UHGV virus genome: UHGV-0171044
DNA: 36,457 bases
Source: a virus
Direction: 5' to 3' (one strand)
Made by a program: the position numbers and the translations under genes. The notes below the pieces were generated by a model. The model saw only the letters and a program-made list of their open reading frames with translations. It had not been told where the DNA came from and made no database searches. This document shows positions 3,733 through 36,407 of the stretch, piece by piece. Position 1 is the stretch's first letter. Each line of letters begins with the position of its first letter.

Positions 3733-4440
3733 TTATGCCGCCTGTTTTAGTTCGTTAACTCTGATGTTCATTACCTGAACGCATTTAGCCTGCGCCTCCT
3801 CGTTGCCAGCCATTAATTGCCAGTCACGCTGATAACGCTCGATGAGTTTTTTCTTGTCAGTTTCTGTTGACGCATAATCGCTGAAGTCTTTCAGGATTTG
3901 TTCGCAGTCAACCGATGGAGATTTCTGGTTGGTATTTTCTGGTGATGGTTTGTTATCTGATGCTGGGATTGCCCATCCCGGCAGCGATGGAGGAAGCCAG
4001 TAAAATCCTGTTCCATCCTTGAGTTTTGCCCTGTGCCATCCCTGCTTTTTGTCGAGAGATGTTTGTGCGAAACCTTCCTCAAGGTTATACAGATACCGAC
4101 CGATTCCCCACTGAACGGCAGCACGCTTCATTGCACCTGAACGACCACCTTTTACGGCTTCTACCTGCGTGTTTTCAGCAGCATCCCATTTGGTTACCCA
4201 TTCGGAATCAATCTTGATTGATATGCCGCATTCAACTCCGCCGTTGTTGGGAATATCGCGGTATTCATTGCGCCATCCTGCTTTGCCGCAAACATCGTCC
4301 AGGCGTTTCATGATTGCCCGGTTCGTGACATAAGCCAGCACCATAGCCCACACCTTGCCATCGCGTGTTTTACCGCTTTGCTGTATTCGCCATTCGATAT
4401 CTTCGGGGCTGAATGGCTCATCGAATTTATTCAAATCCAT
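3733..4440 (-). CDS. Rad52-like single-strand annealing protein with an Erf-like C-terminal domain
   Basis: Rad52/Sak hallmark KRAAVQWGIGRYLY; the C-terminal ~60 aa (TETDKKKLIERYQRDWQL ... CVQVMNIRVNELKQ) matches the P22 Erf C-terminus as I recall it; GAGGTGA RBS. Confidence 0.8.
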   Translation of the reverse strand: MDLNKFDEPFSPEDIEWRIQQSGKTRDGKVWAMVLAYVTNRAIMKRLDDVCGKAGWRNEYRDIPNNGGVECGISIKIDSEWVTKWDAAENTQVEAVKGGRSGAMKRAAVQWGIGRYLYNLEEGFAQTSLDKKQGWHRAKLKDGTGFYWLPPSLPGWAIPASDNKPSPENTNQKSPSVDCEQILKDFSDYASTETDKKKLIERYQRDWQLMAGNEEAQAKCVQVMNIRVNELKQAA

Positions 4441-4527
4441 AATTCACCTCAGAATGGACATGGACCAAGGAAATAACGCTGATTTAATACTTCGGTCTTT
4501 GCCGCGTTTAAAAATACGCGAACACCT

Positions 4528-4698
4528 TCACGATCTCCCTTCTGGCGATACATTAACGCCTGCTGCGTGTACATGCGTCTCTGTAACTTGCTCTCCTTCA
4601 CTGTGGTTGCAAGTGACATGAATATCTCCTTCGTTACCGATTAATTCTTTCATCTGACGAATGAATTCTTCGTCTGACCAGTTATCTGTAAAACTCAT
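4528..4698 (-). CDS. hypothetical acidic small protein (56 aa)
   Basis: ATG at 4698 overlaps the kil stop as ATGA; the track ORF starts at an upstream GTG. Confidence 0.4.
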   Translation of the reverse strand: MSFTDNWSDEEFIRQMKELIGNEGDIHVTCNHSEGEQVTETHVHAAGVNVSPEGRS

Positions 4699-4847
4699 TT
4701 CCTGCGATACCACGGAAGGTTGATAGCTGATTTCATCGCTTTATTTGCTTCAAGCCACATTTTTGAATCACCAATAAATCTGGCTATTACTGCTTTGTTC
4801 TGTGCAGCACGAAGCATCTGGTGATTAATGGCTATTTCATTGCGCAT
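4695..4847 (-). CDS. kil: Kil-like host-killing protein (50 aa)
   Basis: hand translation MRNEIAINHQMLRAAQNKAVIARFIGDSKMW... resembles lambda Kil (FIGDEKMF) as recalled; GGAGG RBS; sits directly after cIII as in lambda. Confidence 0.5.
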   Translation of the reverse strand: MRNEIAINHQMLRAAQNKAVIARFIGDSKMWLEANKAMKSAINLPWYRRK

Positions 4848-4966
4848 AACGCCTCCAGTTGTTTCTTTGCTGCTCTGATTAATTGTTTAACTCGGCGTGA
4901 TAATTCAGATTCGTGCGGGTAGAAAGCGGACATGACGCCGCTACCCGCGAGCTGAAAGTGCATCAT
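4832..4966 (-). CDS. cIII: CIII-like FtsH inhibitor (44 aa)
   Basis: MMHFQLAGSGVMSAFYPHESELSRRVKQLIRAAKKQL parallels lambda CIII (MQYAIAGWPVAGCPSESLLERITRKLRDGWKRL, from memory); AAGGAG at 7 nt before ATGATG; the longer track ORF is an N-terminal over-extension. Confidence 0.6.
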   Translation of the reverse strand: MMHFQLAGSGVMSAFYPHESELSRRVKQLIRAAKKQLEALCAMK

Positions 4967-5032
4967 GGGTAACTCCTTATATTTGATTGCATAACGAAAA
5001 CGCCTCAAGTGAAGCGTTATTGGTATGAATAT

Positions 5033-5056
5033 AAAAAAGCCCTCACACTGGAGGGC
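5033..5056 (-). terminator. rho-independent terminator between the accessory cluster and cIII
   Basis: minus-strand GCCCTC-CAGTGT-GAGGGC followed by TTTTTT. Confidence 0.6.
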
Positions 5057-5118
5057 AAAGAAGATTTCCAATAATCAGAACAAGTCGGCTCCTGTTTAGT
5101 TACGAGCGACATTGCTCC

Positions 5119-5146
5119 GTGTATTCACTCGTTGGAATGAATACAC
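5119..5146 (-). repeat. 9-bp perfect inverted repeat with 10-nt spacer
   Basis: GTGTATTCA ... TGAATACAC directly downstream of the 70-aa ORF and upstream of the terminator; no U-tract, so possibly a processing or protein-binding site. Confidence 0.3.
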
Positions 5147-5151
5147 AGTGC

Positions 5152-5364
5152 TTATTCGCGAGCTTTGAGCATGGCATCAGCAATAAAGTAGGCATCATCT
5201 GCTAATTCTTTGTACTGTGGTGAATTCTGTCCACCACCAAAGGAATGTCCGTCCCATCTGCGCACTATTGCTGCCATAGCCTTAGCAGCGAAGTAATCAC
5301 GTAATGTCGCATCACTTGCCATTTCTGGGTGTTTGATATCTGCTTCATAAAACTCGCACATCAT
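5152..5364 (-). CDS. hypothetical protein (70 aa)
   Basis: ATGATG start overlapping the upstream stop as ATGA. Confidence 0.5.
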   Translation of the reverse strand: MMCEFYEADIKHPEMASDATLRDYFAAKAMAAIVRRWDGHSFGGGQNSPQYKELADDAYFIADAMLKARE

Positions 5365-5657
5365 TCACCTCCCAGAGCCTTGCTGATTGCTGCAAGACCT
5401 TTATTAACAGCTCCATACCATTCTGGATATGTTGTCGTTGTTCTATTTTTGGATTGCTTAAGTAATAACTGAAGTGCTTCGAGAAGGTCAGGTGCTGCCG
5501 CTATTAAATTGGCATCTTCAATACATTGAACTTCCTCACAGATTGCAATATACGAACGCCAGCCTGCGCCATTTTCAAGTGAGTCTGCCTGGATTATTTT
5601 AATCTCATCGCCATCCATCATTATTTCCCACTTACCTTCAGTACCTTTAAATTCCAT
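5361..5657 (-). CDS. hypothetical protein (98 aa)
   Basis: internal ATG at 5657 with a GAGG-type RBS; the track start is TTG. Confidence 0.5.
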   Translation of the reverse strand: MEFKGTEGKWEIMMDGDEIKIIQADSLENGAGWRSYIAICEEVQCIEDANLIAAAPDLLEALQLLLKQSKNRTTTTYPEWYGAVNKGLAAISKALGGE

Positions 5658-5704
5658 GTTAGCCTCTGTTGTTAGTGCCAAAAATAAAGGCCGACAATGC
5701 GGCC

Positions 5705-5887
5705 TCAGAATGGGTTGTATCCATGTTTAAAGGCGAAATCGTATGCCTCACCCTTAGTGCTGAAGTATTCATAATCAGCAAATCCATCACGATAAAACTT
5801 GCAGCACCAATGAGGCGGAATGCCATCCTCAGGGCCATAGTTTTGATGGAAAACATCCTCGACGATTATATTTTCATCTTTTCCCAT
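5705..5887 (-). CDS. hypothetical protein (60 aa)
   Basis: ATG preceded by GAGGTGA. Confidence 0.45.
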   Translation of the reverse strand: MGKDENIIVEDVFHQNYGPEDGIPPHWCCKFYRDGFADYEYFSTKGEAYDFAFKHGYNPF

Positions 5888-5941
5888 ATCTCACCTCAAA
5901 TAAGTGGTTTGCTGCGAAAGTAAATACGCTTAAGTTACCTG

Positions 5942-6079
5942 TTATTTATCCCACCAAGTTCCGCATCTATCTATCCAGTTACACCAATCATCGACACTCC
6001 ATTTTGTTGTGTCGCATTTTGGCAACTGGCATGAATATCTACCTTCTTTGTAAAGTCGGCGTTTGACTTTCTTGAGCAT
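5942..6079 (-). CDS. hypothetical Cys4 small protein (45 aa, possible zinc ribbon)
   Basis: hand translation MLKKVKRRLYKEGRYSCQLPKCDTTKWSVDDWCNWIDRCGTWWDK; C-x4-C ... C-x5-C spacing; GAGGTGA RBS; first ORF after N. Confidence 0.35.
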   Translation of the reverse strand: MLKKVKRRLYKEGRYSCQLPKCDTTKWSVDDWCNWIDRCGTWWDK

Positions 6080-6087
6080 GGCTCACC

Positions 6088-6420
6088 TCAATCGTAATAA
6101 GCTGGAATTGATTTTCCGCGTTGCTTCTGGCGGCCTGAGCAAGTCACACCCATTTCACTGCGTGGCTTGCTGTACCATGTGCGCTGATTCTTGCGCTCAA
6201 TACGTTGCAGGTTGCTTTCAATCTGTTCGTGGTATTCAGCCAGCACCGTAAGGTCTATCGGATTCAGTGCGCTTTCTACTCGTGATTTCGGTTTGCGATT
6301 CAGTGAGAGAATAGGGCGGTTAACTGGTTTAGCGCTTACCCCAACCAACAGGGGATTTGCTGCTTTCCATTGAGCCTGTTTCTCTGCGCGACGTTCGCGG
6401 CGGCGTGTTTGTGCATCCAT
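6088..6420 (-). CDS. N: antitermination protein N (lambda type)
   Basis: MDAQTRRRERRAEKQAQWKAANPLLVGVSAKPVNRPILSLNRKPKSRVESALNPIDLTVLAEY matches lambda N including the arginine-rich boxB-binding motif; real start is the internal ATG at 6420. Confidence 0.9.
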   Translation of the reverse strand: MDAQTRRRERRAEKQAQWKAANPLLVGVSAKPVNRPILSLNRKPKSRVESALNPIDLTVLAEYHEQIESNLQRIERKNQRTWYSKPRSEMGVTCSGRQKQRGKSIPAYYD

Positions 6421-6578
6421 CTGGATTCTCCTGTCAGTTAGCTTTGGTGGTGTGTGGGAGTCGTAGTCCTGAACGAAAACACCCCGCGATTGGCGCATTG
6501 GCAGCTAATCCGGATTCGCACTTCCGGCCAATGCTTCGTTTCGTATCACACACCCCAAAGCCTTCTGCTTTGAATGCT

Positions 6579-6609
6579 GCCCTTCTTCAGGGCTTAATTT
6601 TTAAGAGCG
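6579..6609 (-). promoter_or_regulatory. nutL (boxA CGCTCTTAA, boxB GCCCTGAAGAAGGGC)
   Basis: minus-strand sequence CGCTCTTAAAAATTAAGCCCTGAAGAAGGGC matches lambda nutL as recalled, upstream of N. Confidence 0.85.
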
Positions 6610-6644
6610 TCACCTTCATGGTGGTCAGTGCGTCCTGCTGATGG

Positions 6645-6721
6645 CTTAAAATTACAAGAAAGATTGTATGCTGTAAACAAGAAATATTGTAAAAATGGGC
6701 GTGAAAAACAAACTCCATTGT
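6645..6721 (-). promoter_or_regulatory. pL promoter with 434-type OL operators
   Basis: three 14-bp ACAAnnnnnnTTGT sites (6654-6667, 6677-6690, 6708-6721); minus-strand TTTACA and TAATTT hexamers 17 bp apart. Confidence 0.7.
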
Positions 6722-6771
6722 TTTTAAACGGAAAATAGTTTGTTTTTTGGTTGTCGAAATCGAGGTGAGGA

Positions 6772-8115
<1,344 letters not shown>

Positions 8116-33307: not shown

Positions 33308-34180
33308 ATGAAAAGTATAGCAAAGGCACAAAACGATTTCACCATCTTCAAATTCGGCGACAGTGAAATCCGCGTCATCAACAAATGCGGTGAGCCGTGG
33401 TTTGTAGCAAAAGATGTTTGTGATGCTTTAACCCTGACTAACTCACGCAAGGCGCTTACTGCACTTGATGACGATGAAAAGGGAGTAACTTTAAGTTACA
33501 CCCTTGGTGGTGAGCAGAATCTAAGCATTGTTAGCGAATCAGGTATGTATACATTGGTTCTGCGCTGCCGCGATGCTGTCAATAAAGGTTCGGTCCCGCA
33601 CAAATTCCGCAAGTGGGTAACAGCAGAAGTTCTACCTTCAATTCGCAAACATGGCGAGTATGTGAAAGGCAAGAAAACCACTGTTGAGGAAAGAACGCCG
33701 CTACGCGATGCAGTAAACATGCTGGTAGGAAAGAAAGGACTTCGCTATGACGATGCATACAATATGGTTCATCAGCGTTTTGGTATTGACAGCATTGATG
33801 AACTTTCAATTGAACAAATCCCGCTGGCCGTAGAGTACATCCACAGGGTAGTGCTTGAAGGCGAGTTCATCGGCAAACAAGAGAAGAACGAGCTTTCTGC
33901 AAAAGAAGCAAACAGCCTTGTATGGTTATGGGATTATGCCAACCGCTCACAGGCATTATTCCGCGAACTGTATCCGGCGCTAAAACAAATTCAATCGAAC
34001 TATTCCGGCAGATGCTACGACTACGGTCATGAATTCTCGTATGTTATCGGAATGGCGAGAGACGTTTTAATCAATCACACACGAGATGTTGATATCAATG
34101 AGCCAGACGGACCAACGAATCTTTCCGCATGGATGAGACTTAAGAATAAAGAATTACCTCCTTCAGTACATAACTACTGA
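33308..34180 (+). CDS. ant: antirepressor Ant
   Basis: follows arc in immI; AGGAAA RBS before the ATG at 33308 (the track start at 33242 is GTG and would run into arc). Confidence 0.8.
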
Positions 34181-34280: not shown

Positions 34281-36407
34281 ATGACAGATTCAATAAATGC
34301 CAATGTTGTAGTGAGTATGCCTTCGCAACTCTTCACTATGGCTCGTTCTTTTAAAGCCGTAGCTAATGGAAAGATTTATATCGGTAAAATTGACACTGAC
34401 CCGGTAAACCCTGAAAACCAGATTCAGGTTTATGTGGAGAACGAAGATGGCTCTCACGTTCCTGTTTCACAACCAATCATCATTAACGCTGCTGGTTATC
34501 CGGTATATAACGGACAGATTGCCAAATTCGTTACCGTGCAAGGCCATTCTATGGCTGTTTATGATGCATATGGGGCGCAGCAGTTCTATTTTCCTAATGT
34601 GTTGAAGTACGACCCTGATCAACTACGGCAGCAATTAGAAGACCCGGATGGAGCTAAAAAATATCCTGAATTGCAGATATCTCGGTGGAGGGACGATTGT
34701 GATGTAAGAGGGTGGGGGGCAAAAGGCGATGGTATAACAGATGATACATCTGCATTGATCCTGGCTGCAGAATATGCACGAGAATCATCCAGAACATTAC
34801 GAGCGGAAGGTGATTTTATTATTACGGAGACATTAAATCTTCGTAATGTCAGCCTAGAAATGACCAATGCTGTTTTTACCATATCCCACTCAGGGATAGG
34901 GGTATTGCTTGGCGGGAATGCATCAAACCCTAACAACCCAAGACAAAACTTCGGAACGATTATCAGAAATTCTGGTATTTCATCTGAAACGACACCGGAT
35001 ATTCGTATTATCGGGGCAAAAGGGCAGCATATTAACATTGAGCGTTGCGACTACTTACAGTTATATGCAAACTCTGATGATTCAGTATATGAAACAGATT
35101 ATTCTATAGCCTACTCAACCTTTAACCTGAAAAAGGTCGATACAATTCATTTTCTTGGTGTAGTTAGAGGTTGGATAAACGAAAACAAGTTTTACCTAAA
35201 CAGGACAAATAATGTGATTATTGCTGATAATCCGTATTCACATAATCACAACAAGTTTTTTGGTGGAACGATGGAGAATACTGGGGTTATTGATATTCAG
35301 CGTGGTAATAATAATCATTTTTACGGACTCCGTTTTGAGCGCAGACCAGACAACCCAGATGACACACAAAGAATTAATTTTGGTAGTTATACGTGGAATA
35401 ATTCTGTTCAGGCATCATGGCTTAGCTTTTCTGCATATACCAATGAACCATATAACCCAAACAATCTTGTAACTGTCACTGATAATGGTAATGGAAATGC
35501 TGTATATCATATTCAGGAAGAACTAACTAATGAAGTGTCGCTTTTTTCAGTGAGTGAGAAAACGCCATTTTTATCAAGCGTTAATATGGGAAGTTCAGAT
35601 ACACCTGATTATGTTACAGATGTAAAAAATGTGCGAAATTTAATTCATCTTGTTAATGGTAGTTTTGCTATTGGACGTAACTTCAGGACAATTTGGGAAT
35701 CAGGTGATATAAGCGTCAGGAATGGCGATGTGTTTGCATTTACTTCTGATGTCAGCGCATTCCGCATAAGGGTTTATGGAATTGACGAGAATGGCAGTGT
35801 TATTACAAATGAGCCTGAAGGGATTGGTTTTCCAGGGGCTTCATGGGATGATGAAAACAGTCGTTTTACTACCCAGTCTAACATCGGTAATGCAAAGTTT
35901 AGGATAACCGACAAAGGAGGAGTAAAATCAATAAGGGTTGTCATTCTGTCGGGTGGTAATACATCTGGAATTACCTTCAAATATATCAGATTTACCGGAA
36001 GATATTATAAGGATAGTTCTGCGTATCCTCGAAGAAATATGGATGATCATAATATCCACAGGTCTGGTGCTGTGATGTTTAATTCATCACTTGATGTCAA
36101 AATGGAAAATATAGCATCAGGTGTTACCTGTTATGTAAAAGATGCATCTGATGTTAAGGTTAATATATTCAGAAATAGATACGTTGTTAAATCGGTGTCC
36201 GGAAATACTATATATGTGCGTAACCAGGATGAAATTTCATATTCTGGTCCTTATGATGACTTTAAAGTTGCATATACTAGCGGGGCAAAAAATATGATTT
36301 CTGATGTTTCAGGAATTTCATCTAATGCAATAACGTTATCAGGTAGTGTTCCTTCTGAAATATCAGAAGGAAGCAATATTGATTTGATTAAAATATTAAC
36401 GAAGTAG
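34281..36407 (+). CDS. tailspike: P22-type head-binding N-domain plus divergent beta-helix receptor-binding domain
   Basis: first ~115 aa ([38 protein letters not shown] ... NVLKYDPDQ) match the P22 gp9 head-binding domain; the remainder carries a [11 protein letters not shown] motif typical of pectate-lyase-like beta-helix enzymes and does not match P22 endorhamnosidase. Confidence 0.9.

Follow-up and report, generated by a model that had tools for sequence, protein, structure and literature searches.

Four small ORFs in the N-to-cIII interval of a P22/Sf6-like phage genome: evidence for a mosaic accessory slot

The UHGV virus genome UHGV-0171044 (36,457 nucleotides, referred to here as the window) carries four small ORFs, A to D, directly 3' of a lambda-type N gene and ahead of cIII. 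In lambda, the corresponding interval holds ral, orf28, sieB and ea10 and is a documented accessory region, so that its description as a slot for host-modulating genes in the initial annotation of the window was sound. The same annotation saw in the four ORFs candidates for anti-restriction or other anti-defense functions. This raises the question of whether A to D are genuine genes, to which families they belong, and whether counter-defense is what they were selected for.

Layout of the interval

The features of the locus, all on the minus strand, are as follows, in the order in which transcription from pL would meet them.

6579-6609, minus strand: nutL, read from the sequence, with boxB GCCCTGAAGAAGGGC at 6579-6593 and boxA CGCTCTTAA at 6601-6609
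6088-6420, minus strand: antiterminator N, lambda type, 110 aa from MDAQTRRRERR (Pfam N36, E 2.5e-26; phrog_271)
5152-6079, minus strand: the four small ORFs A, B, C and D
5942-6079, minus strand: ORF A, 45 aa, pI 9.3, five Trp; Pfam DUF5484 (PF17583), the T4 gp55.4/Sf6 gene 36 family
5884-5915, minus strand: junction block over the RBS and start of ORF B, shared with other phages
5705-5887, minus strand: ORF B, 60 aa, pI 4.7; rare family phrog_37822 (E 3.8e-45)
5677-5706, minus strand: terminator-like hairpin between B and C, GAGGCCGCATTGTCGGCCTT followed by TATTTTT (hairpin at 5706-5687)
5361-5657, minus strand: ORF C, 98 aa from ATG, pI 4.5; very likely PF27050 (Phage_P22_Y8K6); phrog_1273 (E 8.3e-32)
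5152-5364, minus strand: ORF D, 70 aa, translationally coupled to C; C-terminal part of phrog_2201 (E 1.3e-19)
5117-5148, minus strand: strong stem-loop with a 9-bp perfect inverted repeat, GTGTATTCA (5120-5128) and TGAATACAC (5139-5147)
5029-5056, minus strand: predicted intrinsic terminator, GCCCTCCAGTGTGAGGGC followed by T6 (5056-5039), corresponding to lambda tL2a, about 70 nt upstream of cIII
4999-5018, minus strand: second hairpin, in the cIII leader
4832-4966, minus strand: cIII, the downstream flank of the cluster (Pfam cIII, E 8.8e-30; 99.4% nucleotide identity to HK97 cIII-kil)

The host phage is P22/Sf6-like, with 434-type immunity and a lambda-type N and nutL. We took as an N-dependent antitermination unit a nut site between promoter and N, together with a lambda-type N carrying an arginine-rich motif. 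The window holds a nut site with both boxA and boxB, an N36 domain, and a block (6164-6643) that is 97.7% identical to the nutL-N region of lambda (35104-35583), which includes the annotated Nutl site; N itself shares 98.6% nucleotide identity with Sf6 gene 37. The boxB hairpin was also picked up by our hairpin and terminator scan. The pL operon that contains the four genes is repressor-controlled.

The four ORFs (45, 60, 98 and 70 aa) lie directly after N at the positions first reported, and a Shine-Dalgarno sequence could be read for each of them: GGTGAG for A, 2 nt ahead of its ATG and overlapping the N stop codon; GAGGTGA for B; AGAGG for C, 6 nt ahead of its ATG; and GGGAGGTGA for D. For C, the ORF listing extends the start to a TTG at 5681. 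Two of the ORFs had been described as coupled through ATGA; there is indeed one coupled pair, C and D, in which the C stop overlaps the D start, but this is the only such overlap in the cluster. The GC content of the four genes is 0.41-0.45, versus 0.465 for the whole window. B, C and D are acidic and A is basic, GRAVY is negative for the products, and neither signal peptides nor transmembrane segments were found in them (GRAVY; TMHMM 0 for Sf101 orf57 and orf123 in Silas Supplementary File 3).

We then analyzed the structures at the end of the cluster. The inverted repeat was found as first described. As pL-sense RNA, the stem-loop forms a 14-bp stem with a dG of -27.6 kcal/mol (z -6.7), and none of 200 shuffled sequences folded as well; the opposite strand folds more weakly (-21.8 kcal/mol). 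Its sequence is identical in lambda, Sf6, HK97, mEpX1, Bas106 and Sf101 and in the Escherichia coli prophages SC407, 2017.18.04CC and YZ3-11, and at least 120 IMG/VR contigs carry the 34-mer without a mismatch. Covariation was uninformative, every retrieved copy being identical. In most relatives, homology begins at or within a few bases of the 5' edge of the stem-loop, whatever gene stands upstream, and in Sf6 the stem-loop is the edge of a conserved block annotated as boundary sequence bsq4.

The structure at 5056-5029 has a 6-bp stem with five GC pairs, a 6-nt loop and then TTTTTT (-11.1 kcal/mol, z -3.7), that is, a GC-rich stem-loop followed by a U-tract, and is predicted to be a rho-independent terminator. 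The hairpin and terminator said to end the cluster before cIII are thus both there, but the terminator (5056-5039) falls outside the segment 5119-6079 to which it had been assigned. The region 5031-5151 is 98.4% identical to lambda 33923-34045, at the same position relative to cIII, and 98.3% identical to positions 801-921 of the Sf6 locus, labeled "terminator; homology to phage lambda; tL2A" and "bsq4; boundary sequence". By sequence, hairpin and terminator are lambda's own tL2a region, or bsq4 of Sf6. Two further hairpins have counterparts in lambda. The one between B and C folds at -13.1 kcal/mol (z -2.9); the segment 5665-5692 shares 89% identity with lambda 34055-34082, immediately past the stop codon of ral, and the hairpin region is also kept in mEpX1, mEp043, Bas106 and Sf6. 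Around the cIII leader hairpin, 94.9% identity is shared between 4990-5027 and lambda 33483-33521, a stretch that shortly precedes cIII. An Rfam scan of 4700-6800 returned nothing meaningful.

Families of the four ORFs

Although the initial annotation could assign none of the ORFs to a family, sequence comparisons place all four in known families, each of uncharacterized function. ORF A scored 47.4 bits against PF17583 (gathering cut-off, 27), its residues 5-42 aligning with positions 3-41 of the 43-position model, and matched phrog_1871 with an E value of 2.6e-22. The 888 phage records returned by tblastn come for the most part from Tevenvirinae, with identities near 50%; the mEpX1 copy is 100% identical. 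In agreement with this, the Sf6 record labels gene 36 "similar to phage T4 gene Orf55.4", and A shares with T4 gp55.4 and DUF5484 the motif KRxL(F/Y)KxGxY...PKxDTxxW(S/T)(V/I)x(D/E)Wxx(F/W/Y)IDxxGxW. Literature on "gp55.4" was limited to a transcript listing. A had also been called a Cys4, zinc-ribbon-like protein. A zinc ribbon has four ligand cysteines, typically in two CxxC knuckles, that are kept across homologs. The cysteines of A are spaced C-x4-C-x10-C-x5-C; the fourth is a tyrosine in Sf6 gp36 and in Bas106_0043, and the four positions are Leu/Ile, Gly, Ile and Asn in gp55.4 of the T4-like phage NR1 and in Klebsiella phage KMI11, so that T4-type gp55.4, unlike A, has none of the four. 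We rejected the zinc ribbon on these grounds.

ORF B belongs to a much smaller set: its homologs come from 17 phage records only, at more than 91% identity in mEpX1, mEpX2 and Stx2_5044, 49% in phage C1 and about 42% in Aeromonas phages, and a search of 5.8 billion proteins gave only four clusters. The motif IVVDVFxQ...DGxPxHW is kept in the phage C1 and Aeromonas homologs. One mEpX1 record annotates instead a plus-strand ORF (5669-5923, 84 aa); this was rejected in favor of B because the frame of B is the one conserved in phage C1 and the Aeromonas phages.

ORF C has 251 homologs, and nearly all among the matches listed carry a precomputed PF27050 match, including one that is 97% identical to C (P0001). 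The very likely membership of C in PF27050 is drawn from these precomputed matches of full-length homologs. A RefSeq protein one residue off C bears the PGAP name "XkdD/Y8K6 family phage-associated protein". ORF18 of ST104, annotated "similar to bacteriophage P22 orf78", sits like C in the ral-to-gene 17 interval; this ST104/P22-type member differs from C in that identity is about 46-48% and the N-terminal domain and middle segment are different alleles. An AF2 model of C shows three strands and a helical hairpin (pLDDT 74.5), and residues 64-86 are hypervariable (2.7 bits, versus at most 0.9 elsewhere).

ORF D had no matching Pfam or NCBIfam model, yet it is a member of a very large and very widespread family of two-helix phage proteins. 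It has 436 homologs, and a profile search returned up to 14,093 representatives at E <= 1e-3, an upper figure that counts clusters at 50% identity (96 at E <= 1e-10). The family signature is GGPAFP...RDYFAAKAM...AYxIADAMLxAR, the alignment holds 29 invariant core positions, and the AF2 model of D is a helix-loop-helix (pLDDT 71.7). Longer members consist of tandem D repeats with no known domain, and all cluster names read "hypothetical". PDB sequence searches with C and D gave chance matches only (E 0.25 or worse). We also note that the breadth of the D family, together with the homologs of A, B and D among DNA-metabolism genes of virulent phages, would fit a phage-intrinsic as well as a host-directed role.

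Because all four ORFs have protein homologs in other phages or genera and dN/dS is low where it could be read (0.14 for A versus Bas106, 0.21-0.27 for C, and 0.20 for D versus Hafnia phage yong1), we consider A to D to be genuine genes beyond chance, as judged from sequence. For B, dN/dS was uninformative (four synonymous and five nonsynonymous differences). Pfam, NCBIfam and PADLOC scans of A to D returned only DUF5484 for A. PADLOC, which covers defense proteins, gave no match, Pfam and NCBIfam gave no anti-defense family (Ocr, ArdA, Gam, Abc2, Acr, Tad, Gad and others), and we found no DNA-binding or enzymatic motifs in the four products. A literature search on DUF5484, PF27050, Y8K6, DUF7167 and the PHROG identifiers returned nothing. 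Absence from related phages or a match to a characterized housekeeping protein had been named as results that would speak against a host-interaction role; the ORFs are conserved in other phages, and no characterized housekeeping match was found.

Mosaicism of the slot

To place the interval among its relatives, we mapped each segment to its closest sequenced counterpart. N and A resemble Sf6 (98.6%), A and B resemble mEpX1 (98.4%), C resembles mEp043 (96%), D with the hairpin resembles Bas106 (98.3%), and C and D through kil resemble E. coli SC407 (99.3%); no phage record spans 80% or more of the interval. Compared to lambda, where the order is N-ral-tL2-ea10-cIII (33.3-35.4 kb), the operon, the orientation and the flanks are the same, whereas none of the cargo (orf28, ral, sieB on the other strand, and ea10) is kept and A, B, C and D stand in its place; BLASTP found none of the orf28, ral, sieB and ea10 proteins encoded anywhere in the window. 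Sf6, with the order 37 (N)-36-35 (ral)-34, shares N and gene 36 (A) with the window at 98.6% nucleotide identity but carries ral and the membrane protein gp34 where B, C and D stand here.

The cassettes are delimited by short shared sequences, namely the RBS block 5884-5915, the hairpin 5677-5706, and the hairpin with tL2a at 5031-5151. Indeed, 32-37 nt of the RBS block (94-97% identity) precede unrelated genes in HK97 (the gp45 start) and mEp043, and the two elements that exactly flank the C-D pair (512 bp) here are separated by 9 nt in lambda and by 8 nt in mEpX1. A to D are freely present or absent among otherwise near-identical lambdoid phages. A census of the slot in 101 IMG/VR viral contigs carrying the identical hairpin counted Ral in 45 loci, gp45-like genes in 19, gp34-like genes in 11, A in 9, C in 8, D in 3 and B in 1, with at least 10 gene families besides Ral and more than 40 gene orders. 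The interval is very likely a mosaic accessory hotspot of real early genes. As such, the locus is of an ordinary, already-described kind, and it represents a new permutation of cassettes that had already been sequenced.

Possible roles of A to D

The ral region was treated as an accessory region and a source of genes by Silas et al. (bioRxiv 10.1101/2023.04.06.535777), who obtained one functional hit from it, orf184 of mEp237, which triggers gop-beta-cII. Their 200 genes screened for counter-defense and toxicity included Sf101 orf123, a homolog of C, and orf57, a homolog of D; Ral, Ocr and ArdA scored, and orf57 and orf123 are absent from the list of genes with a phenotype (bioRxiv 10.1101/2023.04.06.535777). 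Orf57 resembles D (61% identity, same N and C termini), but D has a different central loop (RRWDGHSFGGG). Neither orf184 nor Ral is encoded anywhere in the window, and none of A to D resembles Ral (best BLASTP E 0.16 over 16 residues against lambda and Sf6 Ral; no Pfam Ral match).

A hyperplastic lambdoid early-left accessory slot with four cassette genes is the best explanation of these data, with a probability of about 0.6. In such a slot, the conserved blocks 5884-5915, 5677-5706 and 5031-5151 would act as homology arms for cassette swapping by recombination and, as RNA, may serve as terminators or stabilizing stem-loops. Transcription would start from pL, and A and B would be expressed along with N since both precede the first terminator-like structure (in a consensus terminator scan, which is blind to rho-dependent sites), and for C, D, cIII and kil the N-modified polymerase would have to read through 5706-5687 and tL2a. 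Early in lytic growth, the small soluble products would most probably bind host or phage proteins and act stoichiometrically, and such binding could lead to host takeover or counter-defense. An anti-defense role is plausible from position only, and that at least one of the four has counter-defense as its selected function is a possibility we hold tentatively.

We weighed this explanation against several others. That one or more of the ORFs functionally replaces Ral in anti-restriction against type I restriction-modification systems is suggested by the shared slot, by the lack of Ral in the window, and by the acidic character of B, C and D, DNA-mimic anti-restriction proteins being often acidic. 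However, A occurs together with Ral in Sf6, as do C and D in Sf101 and in several IMG/VR loci, so that A, C and D cannot simply be stand-ins for Ral. The want of any Ral resemblance, the silence of orf57 and orf123 in a screen in which Ral, Ocr and ArdA scored, and the modeled folds of C and D, which are simple helical hairpins rather than elongated DNA mimics, likewise make such a replacement very unlikely. It is most improbable that A to D are morons expressed in the lysogen, for example superinfection exclusion or host fitness genes. Their low GC and cassette-like insertion would fit, as would the terminator-like hairpin ahead of C-D and the terminator behind the pair, a punctuation like that of morons; but the genes lie within the repressor-controlled pL operon, their products lack signal peptides and transmembrane segments, and there is no convincing sigma-70 promoter upstream of C. 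The only candidate is a 10/12 match inside the start of B, and the number of promoter matches is at shuffle expectation (4 found versus 3.5 expected). A C-D cassette with its own promoter and terminator was rejected accordingly, as no sigma-70-like site precedes it on the minus strand; terminators flank it on both sides.

A role in the phage's own early program, as accessory factors of replication, recombination, transcription or nucleotide metabolism, draws on the genomic neighborhoods of the homologs. D homologs adjoin ParB-like and DNA polymerase III beta genes in Salmonella phage sal3, B homologs adjoin DNA ligase, exonuclease, RNR and DNA polymerase genes in Aeromonas phages and phage C1, and gp55.4 of T4-like phages lies, unlike A, in the nrdH/nrdG-gene 55 cluster of a virulent myovirus, its transcript being grouped in T2 with early-to-middle genes. 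The D family is also far broader than typical host-specific counter-defense genes, D weakly matches phrog_30599, a "transcriptional regulator" (E 9.3e-5), and the Sf101 homologs of C and D had no reported phenotype in the defense screen. Against this stand the free presence and absence of A to D in near-identical lambdoid phages, which implies that none is required for the core program, the lack of DNA-binding or enzymatic motifs, and the host-directed genes that otherwise fill the slot (Ral, the Sf6 gp34 membrane protein and orf184); we regard a phage-intrinsic role as somewhat unlikely. C and D could also form a two-component module, with coupled translation, a physical complex, and specificity conferred by the hypervariable hairpin tip of C. 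Besides the ATGA overlap, a D-family gene directly follows C in 8 of the 14 C-bearing loci examined, among them prophages of Enterobacter kobei in which both genes are divergent alleles; sequence is conserved at the 3' end of C and the 5' end of D but varies in the interior of each gene; and the hypervariable residues 64-86 of C, at the distal end of the confidently modeled helical hairpin, reassort without regard to the N-terminal domain. Yet C is found without D in mEp043, ST104, Salmonella prophages and a JGI contig, and D without C in Hafnia yong1, Yersinia 21.09 and Salmonella sal3, and the conserved gene ends may simply be recombination junctions. A candidate natural C-D fusion in the Rosetta-stone sense, P0378 (237 aa, ending in a D domain), is a weak lead only: its N terminus reached only 2.6% hhalign probability against the C profile and has no PF27050 match. 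Such a module is unlikely, and its being an unrecognized, widespread two-part host-targeting module is quite unlikely. If it were one, C would be a modular adaptor whose N-terminal beta-domain can be exchanged and whose hypervariable hairpin tip (residues 64-86) is driven to diversify or reassort by a variable host partner, e.g., an immune sensor. D would be the conserved effector or partner and would dimerize to form a four-helix bundle. One of the largest families of unannotated small proteins in tailed phages would thereby gain a function.

Under the accessory-slot explanation, the region between N and tL2a would be a natural exchange site that samples at least a dozen small-gene families. 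Both Ral and orf184 come from this slot and have known interactions with host immunity, and A to D are thus reasonable and cheap candidates for functional screens. If the D family, with its thousands of clusters, or the hypervariable tip of C had a defined host target, a large block of phage dark matter would become annotated.

The early-left operon and its four small ORFs

The window, from a lambdoid phage resembling P22 and Sf6, matched relatives piecewise at ~97% identity over its first 12 kb (Sf101, 58% covered; vB_EcoP-720R6, 48%; Sf6, 46%; mEp043, 43%), and no record reached 80% coverage of this region. The early-left operon is carried by the minus strand, with the transcript order cI/cro, nutL, N, the four small ORFs A to D, cIII, kil and recombination genes. 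The cI/cro pair is recognizable as 434-type. After kil come two small "recombinase" PHROG genes, a 235-aa gene (3733-4440) and a 168-aa gene read as SSB. The two small genes are overlapping ORFs of 56 and 61 aa (4449-4713, minus strand; phrog_1723 and phrog_2123), the counterpart of the overlapping HK97p32/HK97p33.

Features of the early-left region in transcript order
7173-7805 and about 7900-8115, minus strand, cI/cro pair
6579-6609, minus strand, nutL, boxA and boxB identical to lambda
6088-6420, minus strand, N of the lambda type (Pfam N36, E 2.5e-26)
5942-6079, minus strand, A, 45 aa
5705-5887, minus strand, B, 60 aa
5677-5706, minus strand, terminator-like hairpin element
5361-5657, minus strand, C, 98 aa
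5152-5364, minus strand, D, 70 aa
5117-5148, hairpin
5056-5039, minus strand, terminator tL2a
4832-4966, minus strand, cIII
4695-4847, minus strand, kil

An ORF of up to 158 aa (6772-7248, minus strand) lies between cI and N, where lambda has rexAB. It belongs to phrog_2651, a family lacking a functional annotation, had no Pfam match and contains a stretch resembling a signal peptide. In its listed form the ORF runs over the end of cI, so translation probably starts at an internal Met. A role in exclusion or conversion, with expression in the lysogen, is possible.

The initial annotation had described a four-ORF cluster ending in a hairpin and a rho-independent terminator, and as a whole this observation was correct. 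Positions and lengths of the ORFs agreed with ours, and reading the minus strand revealed a credible Shine-Dalgarno sequence for all four, in line with the ribosome-binding sites proposed. ATGA coupling had been claimed for two of the ORFs; we recovered a single such stop/start overlap, between C and D. Purifying selection was evident (dN/dS of 0.14 for A, 0.21-0.27 for C and 0.20 for D); for B, even the nearest diverged DNA copy differs too little for a useful estimate. On sequence grounds, the four ORFs are genes.

The 9-bp perfect inverted repeat (5120-5128/5139-5147) is real. In the pL-sense RNA, the hairpin forms a 14-bp stem through G·U pairs (-27.6 kcal/mol, z -6.7), while the opposite strand folds less well (-21.8 kcal/mol). 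The predicted terminator was also found, as GCCCTCCAGTGTGAGGGC followed by T6. A terminator-like hairpin between B and C (5706-5687) had been missed. A 31-aa ORF (5017-5112, minus strand) runs across tL2a, and a near-identical 32-aa ORF is annotated in phage Bas106 as CDS Bas106_0039. It falls in a block of conserved noncoding lambda sequence and is unlikely to be a gene.

Families of the four proteins

None of the ORFs had initially been assigned to a family, but family matches were found for each. A belongs to Pfam DUF5484 (47.4 bits versus a cut-off of 27), the T4 gp55.4 family, with homologues in 888 phage records; the Sf6 annotation notes a similarity to T4 Orf55.4 for gene 36, which comes immediately after N. 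A had been called Cys4 and zinc-ribbon-like. We aligned it with Sf6 gp36, Bas106_0043, gp55.4 of the T4-like phage NR1 and the Klebsiella phage KMI11 homologue: Sf6 and Bas106 have a tyrosine in place of the fourth cysteine, and all four are missing from the T4-type proteins. Because the cysteines are not kept across the aligned family, the zinc ribbon was ruled out. The conserved features are a basic N terminus and a Trp-rich C-terminal motif.

B matched only phrog_37822 and is rare (4 clusters in a search of 5.8 billion proteins); its homologues in phage C1 and the Aeromonas phages are 42-49% identical to it. In the mEpX1 record PV340543 (locus L006, 2657-2905), an 84-aa ORF antisense to B (5669-5923, plus strand) is annotated in its place. 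We rejected it as a gene since the B frame is kept in phage C1 and the Aeromonas phages, which indicates a misannotation.

C matched phrog_1273, and its homologues (n = 251 across Enterobacteriaceae) carry PF27050 (Phage_P22_Y8K6); ST104 ORF18, annotated as similar to P22 orf78, is located between ral and gene 17. The model of C (mean pLDDT 74.5) combines a low-confidence three-stranded N-domain with a confident helical hairpin (83-93 for residues 51-98). Residues 64-86 form a sharply bounded, hypervariable and length-variable segment (mean column entropy of 2.7 bits versus ≤0.9 elsewhere) at the tip of this modeled hairpin, with the invariant LIAAAPDLLEALQ and AAISKALGEE on either side. The types of N-domain and of middle segment reassort independently of each other, which implies intragenic recombination or diversifying selection.

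D matched the C-terminal part of phrog_2201, with 436 homologues across Enterobacteriaceae. Its profile retrieved up to 14,093 50%-identity representatives at E ≤ 1e-3 and 96 at E ≤ 1e-10, with the signature GGPAFP...(G)MTLRDYFAAKAM...AYxIADAMLxAR. This very large set of roughly 70-90-aa phage proteins (also P0241-P0388) includes tandem-duplicated members (P0371 and P0262); it has no model in Pfam or NCBIfam and no characterized member. D was modeled as a helix-loop-helix (pLDDT 71.7), and fold searches with C and D yielded nothing beyond generic helical matches and phage proteins without a name. A D-family gene directly follows C in 8/14 C-bearing loci, including divergent Enterobacter alleles; C without D and D without C both occur. 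One candidate for a natural fusion of C and D did not hold up.

Mosaic anatomy and census of the slot

When 4800-6520 was compared with relatives by local BLAST, the best match differed from block to block.

Best matches of the mosaic blocks
5877-6454, N and A, Sf6, 98.6%
5665-6174, A, B and the terminator-like hairpin, mEpX1, 98.4%
5359-5704, C, mEp043, 96%
5033-5393, D, hairpin and terminator, Bas106, 98.3%
4800-5705, kil through C, E. coli SC407 prophage, 99.3%

Coverage of the interval reached 80% in none of the phage records and in only 2/5,426 E. coli genomes. Short blocks are common to the relatives whatever their cargo: the one at 5884-5915, with an RBS and start, is also found in front of HK97 gp45 and of an unrelated gene in mEp043. 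Lambda 33923-34045, between ea10 and ral, is 98.4% identical to 5031-5151 (hairpin and terminator); lambda 34055-34082, right after ral, is matched by 5665-5692 (terminator-like hairpin), and the lambda cIII leader by 4990-5027. In lambda and mEpX1, only 8-9 nt separate the two hairpin elements (9 nt in lambda); in the window, the 512-bp C-D pair exactly fills the space between these elements. The matching Sf6 stretch is annotated "terminator tL2A, homology to phage lambda" and "bsq4; boundary sequence". The 5' limit of the shared block coincides, to within one base, with the 5' hairpin edge in lambda, Sf6 and mEpX1; HK97 shares 6-7 further bases upstream, and in D-bearing phages homology continues through D.

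At least 120 IMG/VR contigs contain an exact copy of the 34-nt hairpin. We scored the N-to-hairpin slot in the 101 with an N-type gene upstream. It held Ral, an anti-restriction protein, in 45 loci, followed by HK97 gp45-like (19), Sf6 gp34-like (11), A (9), C (8), an 83-aa family (5), D (3), orf184 (2), DUF7167 (1) and B (1), besides about 33 clusters of ORFs outside these families. There were >40 gene orders, and A-B-C-D was not found in any of the 101 loci. The slot is a textbook hypervariable accessory hotspot. Several further ORF families without an assignment recur in the slot across the IMG/VR loci (L027 onward, 120 contigs); among them are a 230-aa protein (10 loci), a 63-aa protein whose ORF stops 1 nt short of the hairpin (8 loci) and an 88-aa CxxC protein (3 loci).

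Possible roles of A to D

Since the known slot occupants Ral and orf184 act on the host, host-directed roles for A-D are plausible by analogy, and the anti-defense reading initially proposed is a reasonable hypothesis. The gop-beta-cII abortive system is triggered by orf184, a gene of phage mEp237 (Silas et al., bioRxiv 10.1101/2023.04.06.535777). Direct evidence ranges from neutral to negative. Phage Sf101 has a homologue of C (orf123) and one of D (orf57); both belonged to the set of 200 accessory genes synthesized and screened in the same study, and neither appears in its list of phenotype genes. No resemblance was found between A-D and Ral or other slot occupants; A, C and D co-occur with Ral elsewhere. 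That at least one of A-D is a counter-defense gene is possible, though less likely than not. A mainly phage-intrinsic role is unlikely, and it stays a serious rival because homologues of A, B and D are found in virulent phages amid DNA-metabolism genes.

We demonstrate gene order, signals, homology, mosaic junctions and purifying selection, and we give the structural account of the locus a probability of about 0.9. The pL transcripts would extend through N, A and B as far as the first terminator-like hairpin. Binding of N at nutL would then let polymerase read through this hairpin and tL2a into C-D, cIII-kil and the recombination genes. The conserved hairpin/terminator blocks may double as homology patches for cassette exchange, and the four products may be small soluble binders active early in lytic growth. 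The cassettes, uncharacterized, have been sequenced before, and the locus is an ordinary, already described kind of feature.
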